From: an uncultured Planctomycetota bacterium
GTDB lineage: Bacteria; Planctomycetota; Planctomycetia; Gemmatales; Gemmataceae
DNA length: 64,000 nucleotides
Assembly (NCBI GenBank): GCA_963849325.1
Contig: CAWKHF010000007.1
Coordinates: forward strand, 416,001-480,000
Direction: 5' to 3'
Both the position numbers and the translations under genes were made by a program. The first letter of the stretch is position 1; every line of letters begins with the position of its first letter. The notes beneath the pieces were generated by a model, which saw nothing but the letters and a program-made list of their open reading frames with translations, did not search any database and was not told where the DNA came from. This document shows positions 54,152-62,682 of the stretch, piece by piece.

Positions 54152-55325
54152 ATGGAAGTCGGCGGGCCGTTGCTGATCGCCTTCTGGACGTGCGTGTGCC
54201 GCGGTCCTCTCCGGCGCCGCCGAGGCAGAGTTATCGCCCGAGATCCATACCCACGAGCTGCGCGCCCACGTCTATCGTCTCGCCTCGCCGGAGTTTCTGG
54301 GCCGGCGCGGACCGGGAGCGGCCCGAACCTCGCGCCATCTGGCCGCTGCCTTCGAGCGACTGGGACTGAAACCCGCCTTTGGCGATTCGTATTATCAGCC
54401 TATTCCCGCGCTGCTGACGGAAGGCACCAGCAAGGCCAACTTCATCGGCCGCAACGTCGGCGCCATCCTGCCCGGCAGCGATCCCAAGCTCAAGGACGAA
54501 TGGATCCTGCTCAGTGCCCACTTCGACCACCTGGGCAAGCAGGGCGGCGTCCTGTATCCGGGCGCCGACGACAACGCGACCGGCGTCGCCATGCTGCTGG
54601 AGGTCGCCGAGTATTTCGCTCTGACCAAACCGAAGCCGCGCCGCACCATCGTTTTCGTGTCGTTCGATCAGGAGGAGACCGGCCTACGCGGCTCGACCTA
54701 CTTCGCCGCCCATTCGCCGCTGCCGTTTCGCCACTTGAAAGCGTTCCTCACCGCCGACATGCTCGGGCGGTCGATGGCCAACGTCATGGACGAATACGTC
54801 TTCGTGCTCGGCAGCGAGCGTTCGACGCAGCTACGGCGGCTGGTCGAGAAGGTGGCGCCGCCGTCGGGACTGCGCATCGGCCGACTCGGCGCCGACCTGG
54901 TCGGCACGCGCAGCGACTACGGCCCGTTCCGCGATCGTCAGGTGCCCTTCCTGTTTTTCAGCACCGGCCAGCATCCCGACTACCACTCGCCCAGCGATAC
55001 ACCCGACCGCATCGATTACCGGAAGCTGCAGCGCATCAGCGTCTACATCCGCGACCTGACGCGGCGGCTGGCCGATGACGACGAAGCGCCGGCGTGGAAC
55101 GACAAGCCGCTGCCGCCGGACCTGGAGGAGATGCGCACCGTGGCCGTGCTGGTCAACCGCGTCCTCAAGCGACAAGACCTCTATCCGTTGTCGGAGAAGA
55201 AGCGCGAGATGGTGCGGAGCGTGCAGAAGCGCCTGACGACGATCCTCGAGCGCGGCCAGGTCGCGGCGGCGGATCGCACCTGGCTGCTGTGGAACGCTCG
55301 GCTCTTGCTGGTGACGGTGTTCTAA
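54152..55325 (+). CDS. M28 family peptidase (frameshift ~54195)
   Basis: [34 protein letters not shown]. Confidence 0.88.
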
Positions 55326-56686
55326 CGCGGCGGGTTCGTGAACAGACGCTGTTCGATCAACCGCCGCAGCGTTTCGTGGGCGTAATCGTCCATGCCCTCG
55401 CGGCGGCTGCGCCAGACGATTCGGCCCGACTCGTCGAGCAGGACCAGCATGGGGAAGTAATCGGCCTGGAACTGCTCCATCACCGGACAATGTCCGGGTC
55501 CGCCGCCGCTGAGAAGGGTCGTGTAGTTGATGTGGTAACGGCCCCGTACACTCAGCACGCGGCGGCGCTGCTCTTCGACCGGCCCCGTCTCACAGGCGAT
55601 ACCGACCACTTTCAGACCGTAGGGACCGTAGGCCCTCTGCAATTCGACCAGGTAGGGGATGGCTTGCAGGCAGGGTCCGCAGGTGCTGTACCAGAAATCG
55701 AGCAGCACCAGTCGGCCCCGCTGGTCGTGCCGGTATTCCCAGCGTTGCCCATCCACGTCGTTCAGCCCGAAATTGTCCAGCTTGTTGCCGATCAGGACGC
55801 AGAAGGGTACGCGCTGGGTCGGGGTGTGGATGGACAGGGGCGGTTGCGACGGCGTAACCGGCGGCGTCGGCGCCGCTTGCGGTTGGCGTTCGTCGGGCAT
55901 GGACTCCCAGGTCGGCGGCGGAGGCGGCACCGACCACGCCGGTGCCGTCCGATACTGCTGGCCCGGACCCTGAATCTCAACCGTCGGAATCTTCGGAGCG
56001 CGCTGGAACCCCTCGGCGATGTGCGTGGGGTCCGGGCTTCCTCCGAAGCCGTTGCCCGACGTGGGACTGGCCTCGCTCTCACGGGAGGGCGACAGGTTTC
56101 GGCTTGGCGGGATCTTGACGGGCGGATCGAGGTTCGCCGCCGGCGTTCGCTCCTGACCGCTCTCCGTACTCGGTATCGTCTTCTTGCCCGGCACCGCCGG
56201 CGGGTCCGGCACGGGTGGCGTATTCGGCGTGGTGAAGCGCTTGTTGATGCGGATGTATAAAGTCGACTTGGGCGGGATCACGATGACCTGTCCGCTGGCC
56301 AGCTCGTTGCCCTCCTTGGCGCGGGCGATCAACTGGTAATGATGGCCGGGGATCAGGCCCAAAATCGTGAAGAAGCCGTCATCCGTGGTCTCTTTATCGA
56401 CCGGGGCCGCCTTGGACGAATCGTCGTCGAGATCCTTGATCTCGATGCGGGCCTTGACGAGTTTGTCGCTGGAGGTATCGACGACGCGCCCGGCCAACAG
56501 ACCGTTGGCGCCGGGCAGCGGGCCGCCGGTTTCGGAGACGACGGGGGCTTCGCGCGGCGCCGACTTTTCGGAACCCAGGAACGGTTTGGGGTTGGTATTG
56601 TGCGCGGTTTGTTTCTTGCCAAAGAGACTACAGCCCGCCAGTCCCAGGCATACCGTCACCAAAGCCACACCAACCCGGGTGCGCAC
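55322..56686 (-). CDS. Lipoprotein: carboxypeptidase-regulatory-like domain, Pro-rich linker and TlpA/redoxin domain
   Basis: LAGC lipobox; LAGRVVD...DGFFTILGL; LLDFWYSTCGPC; YFP. Confidence 0.82.
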   Translation of the reverse strand: MRTRVGVALVTVCLGLAGCSLFGKKQTAHNTNPKPFLGSEKSAPREAPVVSETGGPLPGANGLLAGRVVDTSSDKLVKARIEIKDLDDDSSKAAPVDKETTDDGFFTILGLIPGHHYQLIARAKEGNELASGQVIVIPPKSTLYIRINKRFTTPNTPPVPDPPAVPGKKTIPSTESGQERTPAANLDPPVKIPPSRNLSPSRESEASPTSGNGFGGSPDPTHIAEGFQRAPKIPTVEIQGPGQQYRTAPAWSVPPPPPTWESMPDERQPQAAPTPPVTPSQPPLSIHTPTQRVPFCVLIGNKLDNFGLNDVDGQRWEYRHDQRGRLVLLDFWYSTCGPCLQAIPYLVELQRAYGPYGLKVVGIACETGPVEEQRRRVLSVRGRYHINYTTLLSGGGPGHCPVMEQFQADYFPMLVLLDESGRIVWRSRREGMDDYAHETLRRLIEQRLFTNPPR

Positions 56687-57009: not shown

Positions 57010-59511
57010 CTAAATCGAAGTTCGCTCCGGCAGCCACGCCAGGCCGAAGTGCGTCACGCGCACGTCCGCCTTGCGCGGCTTGACTTCGATCGGCGCCGCT
57101 TCCTCGCCGACGCGCTTCCATTTCTCGTGGATCTCCGCCAGTTTGGAGTAGTAGTCTCCGGTTATTTTGCGTATCTTTTCCTCCTTGCCATTGGACCGGG
57201 CTGCCGTCGGCTTCGGCGTGGCGAACGACACCAGCCAGTCCCAGAAGGAGCCGTTGGACTTCGGCGTCGCCGGGTCGGCCGGTAGCTCGCTGTCCAGCGC
57301 CTCGAACTTCGGCCGAAACTTCGCCTTGGTCATCTCGATCGCCTGCCGTGCTTCCTCGACGGCGGCGGCGTGGCAGCGCTGACGAAACGCCTCCGCGCTC
57401 TCGCCCGGCTCGCTCACCAACTCCAGGGTGCGATTCTGCAAGAGGGACAACTTTTGCGTGCTGTACAGGTAGTCGGCGAAGGCTCGTTCCAGCGTCTTCA
57501 GCTTCCGCCCGGTGTCCACGCTGGTAGGCACGTTGGCCCAGCGCACGCCGGGCAGCGGCCGCGACTCCATCGGTTCGCCAATGCTCCTTCCCTTGGCCCA
57601 ATCGACGGGGCGTCCCGGCTCGCTGGGCACCGCCAGCAGCCGGACAATCTGACGATGCTCCTTGCCCTTTTTCTTGTCGATGAGGAAGACGACCTCGGCG
57701 AAGCCGAGCAAATGTGGCTCATACGTCGACCGCGCCGCCGGCGATCCGGCCAGCCGCCGGCAAGTAGAACTGGGTCACGTCCGGCGGCAGCACCGGCGGC
57801 AAGCTGTCGTTGCTGGAGGCGGGCGCGGCCGAGTCCGTCTCCGGGACGAGTGTGGCCATCGGAGCCTCGGCGCGCGGCAAGCCGGCGCGGAATTGCTGAT
57901 CGCGCAGGCCGGCGAAGCCGAGTTTCCAGACACGTTCGCCGCACTGCGGGCAACGATCCGTCACGTCCGGGCCGTCCAGCGCGGCGTGACAGTTGCGACA
58001 CAAGGGGATGGCCCGCGGCGGCATTTGCTGCTGCTGCTTGAGGTCGTGCATCAGCTTCCGCGACTTGCTCGCGCGTCAGCGGGCCGCGCAGCAGCGACAG
58101 CGCCCAGCGCGTCTGGAATACCAGCGGCGCCGCTCGGTGGATGTCGTGCATCAGGAAGACGCGGTTGCTCAGCGACGAGATGACGGTCTCCAGGTAGGAG
58201 CGATCCGTCAGCGAACCCTGCTCCGCCGCCACGCTCTCCAGCCCGTCGAGCAGGCGCATCTTGTCGCGCTCGGTTTGCAGCTTGCCGACGAACCAGGTGC
58301 CGGCGTTGGACAGCGCCTTGTAGTCGAGATCCACCGGGTTTTGCGTCGCCAGCAGTACGCCGACGCCGAAGGCGCGGGCCTGCTTGAGCAGCGTCAACAG
58401 CGGCTTTTTGGTCGGCGGGTTGGCCGGGTGCGGCGGCAGGTAGCCGAACACCTCATCGAAGTAGACCAGGGCACGCAGGTCCGTCGTGCCCGGCTGCTTG
58501 CGCGTCCAGCTCAGCACCTCTTCGAGCAGCAGCGTCGTGAAGAACATCCGCTGCCGGTCATCCAGATGAGCGACATAAAAGATCAACTGTTGCGGTTTGC
58601 CGCCGCGATAGAGCATGGCCGACAGGTCGAGCGGCTCGCCGGTCGTCCAGGTGCGGAAGCCGGGGGCGGCGAGGACGTTGTTCAGCGTCGAGGCGAAGCG
58701 CAGCCGCTCCTTGGCGGGGAAGAACGTCTCCAGGTTGTAGGCGCCCATCATGCGAATGGGCGGGTCCTGGATAGCCAGGATGAGGCCGGCCAGGTCGAGG
58801 TTTTTCTTTTGCTCCCAGGCGTGCAGCAGCAGATGGGCGATGAGGATGTGTTCGCGCGACTGCATCGTCTCGCCGGCGATGCCGGTCAGGCCGAGCAGGG
58901 CGCTGGCGGTGGCCTCGGCCTTCTCGGTCAGGGCTTCCGCGCGGCAGGTCGCCCTGCGGAGCGGTGAAACTGCCGAGGATGGACAGCGACAGGCCCGCCT
59001 CGCTGCCCGGCGTGTAGATGCGCCAGGCCGCCGCCTCCTTGACGCCGCGAATGCGTTCCGGCTTCTGAAACGTCTCCTCCAGCCCCTTCCGCCACCGCGC
59101 CGCCAACTGCTCGGCGTATGCGCGGCGCGACAGGTTCTTTTGCTGGGCGTCCTGCTCGTTGACCCAGTGCTCGATGGCGGCCGGGTCGAGGTCGGGGAAT
59201 TGCAACAGCAGGTTCGTCAGGTCGCCCTTGGGGTCGATGAGGATGCAGGGGATGTGATCGATGACCGCCTCTTCGAGAATGCTGATGGCCAGGCCGGTCT
59301 TGCCCGAGCCGGTCATGCCGACGATGACGCCGTGCGTCGTCAGGTCGCGGGCATCGTACATGACGAACTTGTCCGGCCGCACCGTCCGCGTGGCCAGGTC
59401 GTATTCGCGGCCGAGATAGAAGCAGGCCGGTTGCTCGATGTCGAAGGGAGCGGGAGCGGGCGTCGCCGGGGCGGCGGTCGGAATGTTGTCGGCCACGGGC
59501 TTGGTCTCCAT
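57010..59511 (-). CDS. HerA/FtsK-like (DUF87) ATPase with an internal Zn ribbon (frameshifts ~58940, 58055, 57725)
   Basis: LTTHGVIVGMTGSGKT, IDPKGD, YFDEVFG, QARAFG, ATQNPVDLDYK; CRNC..CPQC. Confidence 0.85.
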
Positions 59512-59656
59512 GCCAGATTGTCGGCGTGCCGTATTATGCGGAGTGCCGGCGGCGTTGCCAAGGTCGATGACGGGACGGCAAGGCGAGGCGGGCTGGCTTC
59601 GCGGGGCGCTCTTCGGGTATAACGTGGGCGAATTCCAGAAAACAAGGAGGTGACGG

Positions 59657-60787
59657 ATGAACGTCCATCCCCGCAAGGCGCCGCTCGCTCTGATCGCCCT
59701 GTCCGTGCTCGCGGCGGGCGCGGCTCGGGCGCTCTGCGCGACGAGACATGGGTCCGGCGGCGGATCGAGCAAATCAAGGACAGCGACACCAACGCCTGGC
59801 GCAAGGTCCCCTGGGCATCGTCGCTGCTCGCAGCGCGGCGCCTCGGCGAACGCGAGAAGAAGCCAATCTTCCTGTTCACCCACGACGGCAACATCGACAC
59901 GGGCCGCTGCTGAAACGGCGCCCGCGACATGAGGGTGAGTTCACTCTCCGACGACCGTGTCATCGGCCTGATTAGCAAGTATTTCGTGCCGGCCTGGCTG
60001 TCGCGCGACGACTACCAGCTCGAATCGCGGAGCCAGGCCGAGCGGGACGAACTGGAGCGCATCGATGCCGAGCGTCGCAAGCGCGGCCTGGAGGGCGGCA
60101 CCGTCTGCGTATTCGTCCTCGACGCGGACGGCAGCGTGCTGGCGACGCAGCGCGTGCAGCTCGCTTGCCAGCCCGAGAACTTGCTGCCGTTCCTTACCCG
60201 CATCATCGCGGACAAACACCTGACGCCGCGCGATGCCGAGGCGATCCGCGCCGGCGCTACCCGTCCAGCCGCGATCAAGCCGAAGACGGAGGGCGGCCGG
60301 CTCATCCACGTCTGGACGCGCTGCGACCAGGGCAGCAACCGCGGCCTGAGCAACGATCGCATCGAATTGACGGCGGCGGAGTGGAAAGCGTTCCTGCCGG
60401 CCGCGGACGCCCGCCCGGGATCGTCGTGGCGCATCCCGGACGAGACTGCACAGAAGCTATTCCGCTACTGCTATCCTCCCGGCCCGCACTGGGACGTGAA
60501 GGCCAGCAAGGTGCTCAACAGTACGCTGCGGATCACGCTCGTTGCTGTCTCTACACGAGAGATACGCCTGTGCGCTGGAGGGCGGGCTGGAACTGAGCTT
60601 TCCGCACACGGGCAAGTCGGTGGATGGCCGCGTCACGGCCCATTTCGTGGGGGTGGCGAATGTCAATCCCGGCAAGCAAGCGCTCACGTCGCTGGCGCTG
60701 GTTTCCGAGCAGGCGGACTATGTTTGGTACTGGCAGGGCAAGCCGCAGCCGATCCAGATGCGCATCGCCCTGGAACTGGAGCCGTAG
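59657..60787 (+). CDS. Exported thioredoxin-like protein with in-frame Cys-TGA; probable selenoprotein (frameshifts ~59730 and ~60570)
   Basis: RBS AAGGAGG; signal peptide; KPIFLFTHDGNIDTGRC-TGA(59911)-NGARDMRVSSLSDDRVIGLISKYFVP continues in frame; SECIS-like hairpin downstream. Confidence 0.7.
59931..59948 (+). promoter_or_regulatory. Candidate bacterial SECIS upper stem-loop
   Basis: GAGGGTG-AGTT-CACTCTC: 7-bp stem with one GU pair; loop begins 24 nt after the TGA and has G at position 2 followed by U. Confidence 0.6.
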
Positions 60788-60805
60788 AGCGAGCGGACAG
60801 CACTC

Positions 60806-60862
60806 GTCGGAGCCCGCAGCGTCAGCCAGGGACGTTCCCTCGCTGACGCTGCGGGTCCCGAC
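60806..60862. repeat. REP-like palindrome family B, copy 2 (between convergent genes)
   Basis: GTCGGAGCCCGCAGCGTCAGCCAGGG...CCCTCGCTGACGCTGCGGGTCCCGAC. Confidence 0.82.
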
Positions 60863-61319: not shown

Positions 61320-62249
61320 TCATGGCTCGGGGACCACCTGACCGTCGTTCCGGCACGATAACTTCTGCAGGGTATCCATATCGATGGAGTTGGACAGCGA
61401 AATCACGTGTCCGTCGGAAAAAAGAAACTGACAGATCCCCGTGTGCCAGCTGCCGAATTTGCAGTGAAATGGGCCGACCAGATCATTGGATCCTTGACCC
61501 AGGTTCCATTTGGTTTGACCGCCGATGCGAGAGAAGTTACGAGGAAAGTCTCCGTTCCAGATCGCGCCTTCTCCCCACGTCGGACCGCTCTGGCCCCACA
61601 TGCTCTGGACGGAATGTTTCTCGCCGACGAGAAAGGTCTGGCTCGTGCCGTCGGTGATGTCTTTCAGGGCCGTCTGCGATTGCGAGGACGTGACCTGACC
61701 GCTGCCATCGACCTGGGCGTTGGCATAGCACATCGCTCCCTGGCACAAGGGATGATCCACGATGGCGTTGTAGAACTGGCCGCCGTTGCAAGCGTAGTCC
61801 CCCTGCGACCCGTAATGTTCCTGCGAATCGGGGATGCCGGTACTGGACACCTCGTACATCGTACTCGGCATGGAGATGCTGCGTCGGCTCGGACAAACGT
61901 ACGTCCGCACGAACGCATTCTGCACAAGGGGCGTCTGTTCGTAATAGTTCCTGGTGAGATCCCACTGGTTATAAAGAGCGCTCTGCTCCAGATAGGGGAG
62001 AATGAGCACGAACCAGGTGGCGTGTTGAGGCCCCACGCGACTGGGAGGCAAAGCCTTGTACGTGTCGTGATAGCTGTGGATGGCCAGGCCCATTTGCTTG
62101 AGGTTGTTGCCGCACTGCATCCGCGCGGCGGACTCGCGGACCTTCTGGACGGCTGGTAACAGCAAGCCGATCAGCACCGCGATGATGGCGATGACGACCA
62201 ACAGCTCAATGAGCGTGAAGGCACGGCGCCGTGGAGGAGAATGGAACAT
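61320..62249 (-). CDS. DUF1559 prepilin-type N-terminal cleavage/methylation protein
   Basis: AFTLIELLVVIAIIAVLIGLLLPAVQKVRE, CPS, ITDGTSQT, H-X9-DG motif (WHTGICQFLFSDGHV). Confidence 0.95.
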   Translation of the reverse strand: MFHSPPRRRAFTLIELLVVIAIIAVLIGLLLPAVQKVRESAARMQCGNNLKQMGLAIHSYHDTYKALPPSRVGPQHATWFVLILPYLEQSALYNQWDLTRNYYEQTPLVQNAFVRTYVCPSRRSISMPSTMYEVSSTGIPDSQEHYGSQGDYACNGGQFYNAIVDHPLCQGAMCYANAQVDGSGQVTSSQSQTALKDITDGTSQTFLVGEKHSVQSMWGQSGPTWGEGAIWNGDFPRNFSRIGGQTKWNLGQGSNDLVGPFHCKFGSWHTGICQFLFSDGHVISLSNSIDMDTLQKLSCRNDGQVVPEP

Positions 62250-62682
62250 GGTCGCTCCTTTCGCAGGGTGCGGGAACAAGGCCGGCGGGCCCCGAAGGTA
62301 CACGCCGCTGAACGAGGGGAACGAGTTGACCACCCGAGGGTCAGAAACGAAGAGGAACTGTCACGCAGTTAGAGCGAGAAGCGCAGTCAGGAGAAGCCCG
62401 GCTTGTGGAAAGCCGCCGAGCCGAGAGAAGAGTTCGAGAATCGCATCGCGGGAACCATATTGGACCCGTCACCAACGACAGCCGCCATGCCGGTTTGCAA
62501 GTGAAGGCATCGTAGAGATACGAGGAGCGAACGTCAAGGCGCGGGCGGCGAAGCGCTCCCGAGACTCGACGCCGCGGGCGCTCGGGTTTCGAGAGAGAGC
62601 GATAACCTGCTGCCTTCCGGAAGCGGATTGCCTAACATACCTCTAGAAGTGAACCCCCGCGTCGTGGAGAGGACATCTGGCC

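Follow-up and report, generated by a model that had tools for sequence, protein, structure and literature searches.

A probable exported selenoprotein of an uncultured Planctomycetota bacterium, divided by an in-frame TGA, and its family

Does an in-frame TGA mark the end of a small hypothetical gene, or is it a codon for selenocysteine (Sec) inside a longer one? This question is raised by a locus at positions 59657 to 60787 of a 64,000-nucleotide stretch of contig CAWKHF010000007.1, assembly GCA_963849325.1, which comes from an uncultured bacterium of the Gemmataceae; we refer to the whole stretch as the window and to its own genome as G000. Gene-style open reading frames (ORFs) run here from 59650 to 59913 and from 59929 to 60846, and an earlier reading of the DNA (the original prediction) had proposed that together they encode one exported selenoprotein with a thioredoxin-like fold. 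As it had described, the TGA at 59911-59913 stands directly after a TGC codon, the ATG at 59929 lies in the same frame five codons on (N-G-A-R-D), and read-through of this frame yields ...KPIFLFTHDGNIDTGRC-U-NGARDMRVSSLSDDRVIGLISKYFVPAW.... In the present work, we asked whether relatives of this locus treat the TGA as a codon. Its family is a large one within the Planctomycetota, in which the TGA is conserved together with the coding frame 5' and 3' of it. We consider it very likely that the locus is one gene for a likely exported protein of about 371-375 residues, in which TGA 59911 is predicted to be decoded as Sec through SelB, with a hairpin 20 nucleotides (nt) downstream as the putative selenocysteine insertion sequence (SECIS).

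Conservation of the TGA and the selenocysteine machinery

A six-frame search of 41 related genomes gave matches in 21 of them, and nearly all of the matches had exactly one internal TGA. The nine orthologues from the same genus are single frames of 369-393 amino acids (aa) once the TGA is read through, and their N-termini are alike, with K/R and a hydrophobic stretch resembling a signal peptide. Across 16 aligned full-length members, of which some share only 22-28% identity, W48, A55, P65, F67, C80, U81, R88, L92, P107 and G305 are invariant, and when 36 members were aligned there were six invariant columns (W48, P65, U81, R88, G305 and G327). We also searched 48 fetched loci and two G000 contigs with a hidden Markov model and obtained 53 significant hits to the N-terminal domain. 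Conservation of the TGA in homologues had been suggested as a check, and it was borne out in 52 of these 53 members, each with exactly one TGA, located at the motif column, at identities down to about 17-28%. The sole exception, L014, reads R-D-A-A-S and has neither Cys nor Sec at the motif.

The residues surrounding Sec divide the family into sub-families: RCU[NG]G in the clade of the window copy, GCTUNNG[VI], a Cys-x-Sec arrangement, in the largest clade, and, less often, others such as FCUTNA and FTUNNAE. The vicinal Cys-Sec pair, which the original prediction had taken as the motif of the protein, is thus correct for the window's clade but is the motif of only one sub-family, the largest clade having C-x-U instead. 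The window's own genome holds five family members, the window copy included. The other four lie outside the window, near 255.3 kb and 288.5 kb of contig C7 and near 177.8 kb and 551.2 kb of contig C6; at the motif column each contains a single in-frame TGA, in the contexts GCTUNNGV, RFCUTNAR and FTUNNAE (twice), and both FTUNNAE copies have no Cys beside Sec and no hairpin in a simple scan.

The family extends well beyond the closest relatives. Matches at E<=1e-5 were found in 119 of 301 sampled Planctomycetota genomes and, among the matches listed, those which span the motif carry one TGA (two of them carry 2), save those in G323 and G052. The selenocysteine synthase gene selA was detected (E<=1e-30) in 221 of the 301 genomes and was present in 81 of the 82 which have a TGA-bearing match among the matches listed, according to a hand tally. 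The lone selA-negative genome of this group, G286, is an 84%-complete assembly in 990 contigs. In five complete genomes lacking selA, none of the 12 profile matches contains a stop. TGA-bearing copies therefore track selA and are almost confined to genomes that have it. The window's genome itself has what is needed: a look-up of its Sec machinery, also suggested earlier, found selA (286.7 bits, in three frame pieces), selB (313.7 bits, adjoining selA), selD (386.9 bits) and a tRNA-Sec with anticodon TCA (72 bits), all above their curated cut-offs.

What do the protein databases hold of this family? In a set of 5.8 billion proteins we found 93 relatives, all of them 229-308 aa long and covering at most 77% of a read-through orthologue; those that have a name are 'hypothetical protein' entries from Gemmataceae. 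It had been expected that standard annotation would leave the gene as hypothetical pieces and, in accordance with this, public databases hold only the fragment 3' of the TGA under that name. A profile search against 1.84 billion representatives of 50%-identity clusters gave 5428 matches at E<=0.001, 3113 at E<=1e-10 and 864 at E<=1e-30. Among the best 150 of the 5428, 120 begin no earlier than profile position 86, and the other 30 include the N-terminal domain. The residue which these 30 full-length homologues have in the Sec column is most often Cys (13), followed by Gly (5), Asp (4), Ser (3), Ala (2) and Arg, Asn and Glu (1 each). Cys, the replacement that had been sought, thus stands opposite the TGA in 13 of these 30 database proteins.

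The candidate SECIS hairpin

The rules for bacterial SECIS (bSECIS) elements given in a 2026 review (PMC13188914) are a loop of 3-9 nt, a stem of 4-16 base pairs (bp), a distance of 16-37 nt from the UGA to the loop and a folding energy of -7.5 kcal/mol or lower; the loop should have a G within its first two positions, usually followed by G or U. The hairpin which had been noticed downstream of the TGA is present at 59931-59948. It has a 7-bp stem, the loop AGUU, 24 nt between UGA and loop and an energy of -8.3 kcal/mol, and it satisfies all of these quoted rules.

More weight is carried by what relatives have at the same place. In the window's clade, 97.6% of the stem cells are paired in 13 orthologues, and in three sequences a U-A pair has become C-G by a double change, in which a Val-to-Ala replacement (GUG to GCG) is matched by a synonymous change of UCA to UCG on the other side. 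The stem codons are also low in synonymous change, 4 of 6 being invariant versus 13 of 80 elsewhere (Fisher p 0.013, an approximate value, since the sequences are related). A clade of paralogues, represented by 20 sequences which align without gaps from the TGA onward, has a different hairpin, with the loop CGUGN at 18 nt. Here 78.6% of cells are paired compared with 56.3% in shuffles, and double-sided changes number 30, the shuffles having 11.3 +/- 2.3. The covariation score of this clade was 0.602, whereas shuffled alignments gave 0.176 (none of 500 reached the observed value) and controls slid along the alignment gave 0.205 at most. The loop of a third type is a G[G/U]N triloop, about 23 nt away. 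All three types keep G[U/G] early in the loop, G and U being at positions 2 and 3 in AGUU and CGUGN. Taken together with the distribution of the Sec genes, decoding of the predicted Sec codon by SelB and a SECIS is strongly supported by these sequence comparisons.

Reading frames of the window copy and alternative explanations

Several results weigh against this reading of the locus. Taken by itself the window hairpin is unremarkable: the RNAfold z-score of the segment 59905-59990 is -0.46, and 156 of the 1310 TGA triplets in the window (11.9%) precede a hairpin which passes our own version of the bSECIS rules. When only perfect stems were scored, the limit of -7.5 kcal/mol was reached by just 28 of 52 family hairpins, and no hairpin was found for two of the G000 paralogues; in the main clade many have stems of just 5 bp and an energy near -2.4 kcal/mol. 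Only its conservation and covariation among relatives make the hairpin a genuine signal, and alone it is no better than chance. Of the earlier proposal of a SECIS-like hairpin, its conservation, its covariation and its agreement with the bSECIS rules therefore stand, while the fold of the window copy on its own is not significant. Furthermore, neither Sec nor Cys occupies the motif column in 17 of the 30 full-length homologues, and L014 has D-A there, which means that the scaffold can function with no redox residue present. In the flanks fetched for relatives, no conserved neighbouring gene pointed to a substrate or electron donor. Lastly, the window copy has two indels in 1.13 kb, which exceeds the rate of about 0.6 per kb found in rpoB and rpoC of the same assembly.

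These indels concern a part of the original prediction that has to be amended. It had treated 59657..60787 as one read-through frame; the TGA does lie inside a conserved coding frame, but two 1-base frame breaks had been missed. Alignment of the DNA with six orthologues shows that the first break shifts the reading from the frame of the signal peptide to that of the body, its exact site being uncertain in a divergent region, and that the second restores the frame of 59657. The predicted signal peptide (from ATG 59657) and the last 70 or so codons therefore share one frame, while the TGA-bearing body, approximately 59737-60567, is in another; the stretch read in the frame of 59657 contains 7 TGAs. 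In searches with the window's single-frame reading as the query, the C-terminal piece of relatives likewise matches in a different frame from the body. The features of the locus are collected in Table 1.

Table 1. Features of the locus, its neighbours and other loci or proteins referred to in the text
Feature	Position or identifier	Strand	Basis and remarks
Shine-Dalgarno-like AAGGAGGTG	59644..59652	+	Read from the sequence; ends 4 bases 5' of ATG 59657
Start codon and predicted signal peptide (MNVHPRKAPLALIALSVLAAGAARA)	59657..59731	+	Frame of 59657; judged by eye
First frame break	59718..59745	+	DNA alignment with 6 orthologues; window lacks 1 base, gap put near 59724
Thioredoxin-like domain	59788..60225	+	Frame of 59650; corresponds to residues 40-185 of the modelled orthologue
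Cys codon TGC, adjoining the predicted Sec codon on its 5' side	59908..59910	+	Invariant in the 16-sequence alignment; at -2 (C-x-U) in the largest clade
In-frame TGA, predicted Sec codon	59911..59913	+	Conserved column; Cys homologues; aligns with first Cys of CHWC/CPYC
Predicted SECIS hairpin GAGGGTG-AGTT-CACTCTC	59931..59948	+	7-bp stem, 59931-59937 with 59942-59948; loop AGUU 59938-59941
C-terminal all-beta domain	60253..60784	+	AlphaFold2 model; second frame break falls inside
Second frame break	60560..60575	+	DNA alignment with 6 orthologues; window has 1 extra base, put near 60570
Stop codon TAG	60785..60787	+	Orthologues end at the same ...IALE[LM]EP position
Long G+C-rich hairpin without T-run, just 3' of the stop	60806..60862	+	RNAfold -51.3 kcal/mol, z -7.93, 0/200 shuffles as stable
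HerA/DUF87-like ATPase gene, divergent, upstream	57498-59883	-	Two overlapping ORFs in different frames
Carboxypeptidase-regulatory-like and Redoxin/AhpC-TSA protein	55322-56686	-	454 aa
DUF1559 (H-X9-DG type) protein	61320-62333	-	Prepilin-type N-terminal methylation motif
Broken rpoB, rpoC and selA	G000:C1:334967-343005 and G000:C12:1294158-1295519		Outside the window
Fused homologues	P0097, P0107, P0125, P0147, P0182, P0209, P0229, P0232, P0245		Two-domain module as C-terminal part

Is the window copy then a pseudogene of an otherwise genuine selenoprotein family, with real indels that sever the signal peptide and the C-terminal 70 residues from the body? The presence of two frame breaks within 1.13 kb, a density above that of rpoB and rpoC, leaves room for this explanation, and four other family members in the genome could cover the function. 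We nevertheless consider it unlikely. The assembly breaks genes which must be intact: its rpoB is in four pieces in frames 2, 0, 1 and 2 (at least 3 frame changes), rpoC runs through frames 2, 0, 1 and 1 (at least 2 changes) and selA through three frames (2 changes). Since these essential genes cannot all be pseudogenes, indel errors at about 0.6 per kb are the likelier origin of the breaks in the window as well. The assembly consists of 14 contigs, yet its marker completeness is only 84.69%. The neighbouring HerA-like gene is split too, with PF01935 matching its N-terminal piece, and this split is probably another assembly indel. In addition, the body between the two breaks is free of further stops and is 57-72% identical to the orthologues, and the indels cancel each other, bringing the tail back into the frame of the start. 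Judging from these patterns in the DNA, the two breaks in the window copy are probably assembly indels and not mutations. Any 'frameshift' or 'pseudogene' in G000 should be read in the light of the frequent 1-base indel errors which its assembly seems to carry.

A second possibility is that the TGA is an ordinary stop and that the locus holds two genes, one for a short secreted peptide and one for a protein of 285-305 aa starting at ATG 59929. This is how gene callers annotate the family, and all 93 database relatives, with their 229-308 aa and at most 77% coverage, have that form. Such a division would cut the thioredoxin fold after its first strand, and it does not explain why 52 of 53 members are conserved in one frame across the TGA or why the full-length Cys forms are single proteins. 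Distant members do not share the Met at 59929 and, as had been pointed out, there is no Shine-Dalgarno-like run 5' of 59929, unlike ATG 59657. We therefore regard two separate genes as very improbable.

Read-through by some means other than the Sec system, either a reassigned code with TGA as Trp or Gly or near-cognate suppression, would give the same open frames across the TGA, and is hardly credible for this family: 7 of 16 family genes end in TGA, so that the code is not reassigned, each gene has exactly one internal TGA in one column, a covarying hairpin follows at a fixed distance, the commonest replacement is Cys and not Trp or Gly alone, and the TGA-bearing copies track selA.

Around the predicted selenoprotein gene, the HerA-like and DUF1559 neighbours are shared by G002 only. 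Other apparent neighbour matches were rejected, as they were antisense overlaps with the selenoprotein gene itself, and no partner in an operon came to light. The gene 3 kb upstream, with its Redoxin/AhpC-TSA domain, codes for another exported-looking redox protein; no such synteny appeared in the flanks that were fetched for relatives. Proteins of the DUF1559 family are characteristic of Planctomycetota, in agreement with the taxonomy of the window. The stable hairpin immediately 3' of the stop codon is possibly a terminator or a repeat element; a terminator scan which requires a T-run called no sites, this hairpin included, and Rfam at its gathering threshold gave no matches in the whole window.

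Predicted structure, possible role and comparison with known systems

The structural model was made with AlphaFold2 for the orthologue L007. It has a mean predicted local distance difference test score (pLDDT) of 84.1 and a predicted template modelling score (pTM) of 0.78, and contains a thioredoxin fold in residues 40-185 with the beta-alpha-beta-alpha-beta-beta-alpha order of solved members. C80-U81 stands immediately before helix 1 (residues 82-89), so that the model places the pair at the N-terminus of this helix; both the fold and the redox position which had been proposed for the Cys-Sec pair are found in it. The top Foldseek matches of the N-terminal domain are thioredoxin folds. With VIA-align, the closest structure was DsbH (2ju5; Z 13.2, root-mean-square deviation (rmsd) 3.1 A over 125 residues), followed by 3ira (Z 12.3), 3f9u (12.1), 2lst (12.0), 7tkv (11.8) and DsbD-gamma (1vrs, 11.2). 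In a profile search of the PDB sequences, U81 falls on the first Cys of CHWC/CPYC in solved thioredoxin folds (CHWC in 3ira), and an Ala falls on the second.

The C-terminal domain, modelled alone, has a pLDDT of 90.2 and a pTM of 0.87 and forms an up-and-down beta structure for which Foldseek gave no match at E<=0.001. We assign it to no known fold: the best VIA-align scores (Z 7.8 for NspA, then 7.1 and 7.0 (OmpW)) all remain below 8 and are typical of generic up-and-down beta sheets. The second domain, described earlier as uncharacterised, thus emerges as an all-beta domain with no clear known relative in Foldseek or VIA-align.

What could such a protein do? Sec would take the place of the attacking first Cys of a CxxC motif, at the N-terminus of helix 1 of the thioredoxin fold, and it is from this position that we infer the chemistry. 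Judging from the signal peptide, the protein may act in the periplasm. There, the selenolate may attack an oxidised substrate, whether a disulfide, an oxidant of the peroxide type or a soft metal(loid). The adduct would then be resolved, as a selenenylsulfide, by the neighbouring Cys, which is at -1 here and at -2 in the main clade, and the beta domain could hold the substrate or a partner.

Homologues without Sec point in a somewhat different direction. In 9 of 10 that we scanned, the module stands behind other domains, namely a Ser/Thr kinase (4), regions of an extracytoplasmic function (ECF) sigma factor (4) or a FecR domain (1), and in the tenth it is followed by a SecDF head subdomain. 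The kinase, sigma-factor and FecR fusions suggest that the module can serve as an extracytoplasmic sensor. Together with the redox-dead relatives, these sensor-type fusions may mean that the module has a binding or sensing role instead of a catalytic one. Could all these forms belong to one system? We tentatively hypothesize that multi-copy exported selenoproteins across the phylum, built on a Cys-Sec or Cys-x-Sec thioredoxin scaffold with a beta domain not seen before, and the Cys or redox-dead modules, as outward-facing sensors of Ser/Thr kinases, ECF sigma-factor fusions and a FecR-domain protein, make up an undescribed selenium-based system for periplasmic redox sensing or detoxification, although we would rate this wider picture as possible and no higher. 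If the selenoprotein family is confirmed, the selenoproteomes of Planctomycetota would be much larger than annotated and a family model would mend thousands of split genes, with the kinase and sigma-factor fusions offering a handle on function.

How does the family compare with systems that are already known? No Pfam or NCBIfam model reached its cut-off for the window protein, for the orthologue or for 14 diverse members. Its cysteine-selenocysteine centre recalls mammalian thioredoxin reductase, whose vicinal pair in the sequence GCUG is known for selenenylsulfide chemistry. In that flavoenzyme, a pyridine-nucleotide disulfide oxidoreductase, the pair is carried on a flexible C-terminal tail, among the penultimate residues. 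The likeness consists in the adjacent Cys-Sec followed by Gly in RCUGG, beside which RCUNG also occurs. In contrast, the pair studied here is internal (residues 80-81), at the N-terminus of helix 1, and Pfam finds no flavin domain.

The best structural matches are the Thioredoxin_7, DsbH and DsbD-gamma proteins (PF13899, PF03190; 2ju5, 3ira, 1vrs and 7tkv), with Z 11.2-13.2 and an rmsd of 2.5-3.3 A over 111-129 residues. There are also weak profile matches to 3ira and 2lst, and those proteins are exported, as is predicted here. The differences are nevertheless considerable. Our family has no CxxC but C-U-x-G-A or C-x-U-N-N-G, so that the partner Cys comes before Sec, at -1 or -2, and it has the additional C-terminal beta domain. 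PF13899 and PF03190 do not match the window protein or the orthologue, and the best score of Thioredoxin_7 among the 14 members is 19.5 bits compared with a gathering cut-off of 27. A Trx7/PDZ model also gave a match below its cut-off (E 0.0059).

Among named selenoprotein families, a signal at the sequence level came only from the VPGUxxT family (NF041382/NF041383), which Table 1 of PMC13188914 lists as 'hypothetical protein OS_HP5'; this name was not found in the accessible part of PMC1976440. Its models match the N-terminal thioredoxin part of several of our members weakly (best E 8.1e-5, 22.4 bits), and their lengths, 287 and 349 positions, are similar to those of our family. However, 22.4 bits, or 25.4 as the best score genome-wide, is far from the cut-offs of 275 and 350, and the motif here is GRCU[NG]G or GCTUNNG, VPGU occurring in none of the 52 Sec contexts. 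Our family is absent from the 119 selenoprotein families of Table 1 in the same review, and the entries with a CU motif in that table (SaoC, SaoL, HgcA, MbdU, KCU-star and a 2Fe-2S protein) all lack a thioredoxin fold (PMC13188914). Table S9 of another study (PMC4807772) contains candidates from two marine planctomycetes, split into 'hypothetical' and 'thiol-disulfide isomerase-like thioredoxin' parts, with Cys in the closest hit. These may include relatives of the family described here; the table gives no sequences. We found no description of the family in the literature on planctomycete or Gemmata selenoproteins and on new bacterial selenoprotein families.

With regard to decoding, the window hairpin resembles known bacterial SECIS elements, which lie within the ORF and serve SelB: it stands just 3' of the UGA and fits the rules for loop, spacing and energy in PMC13188914. 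The family departs from them in having three versions of the hairpin, AGUU at 24 nt, CGUGN at 18 nt and G[G/U]N at about 23 nt, many of which are shorter and weaker than the energy rule allows. The mechanism is thus not new, as thioredoxin-fold selenoproteins with a SECIS inside the ORF are well known. What appears to be new is the family itself, its size, its state of annotation and an active site in which the partner Cys precedes Sec.

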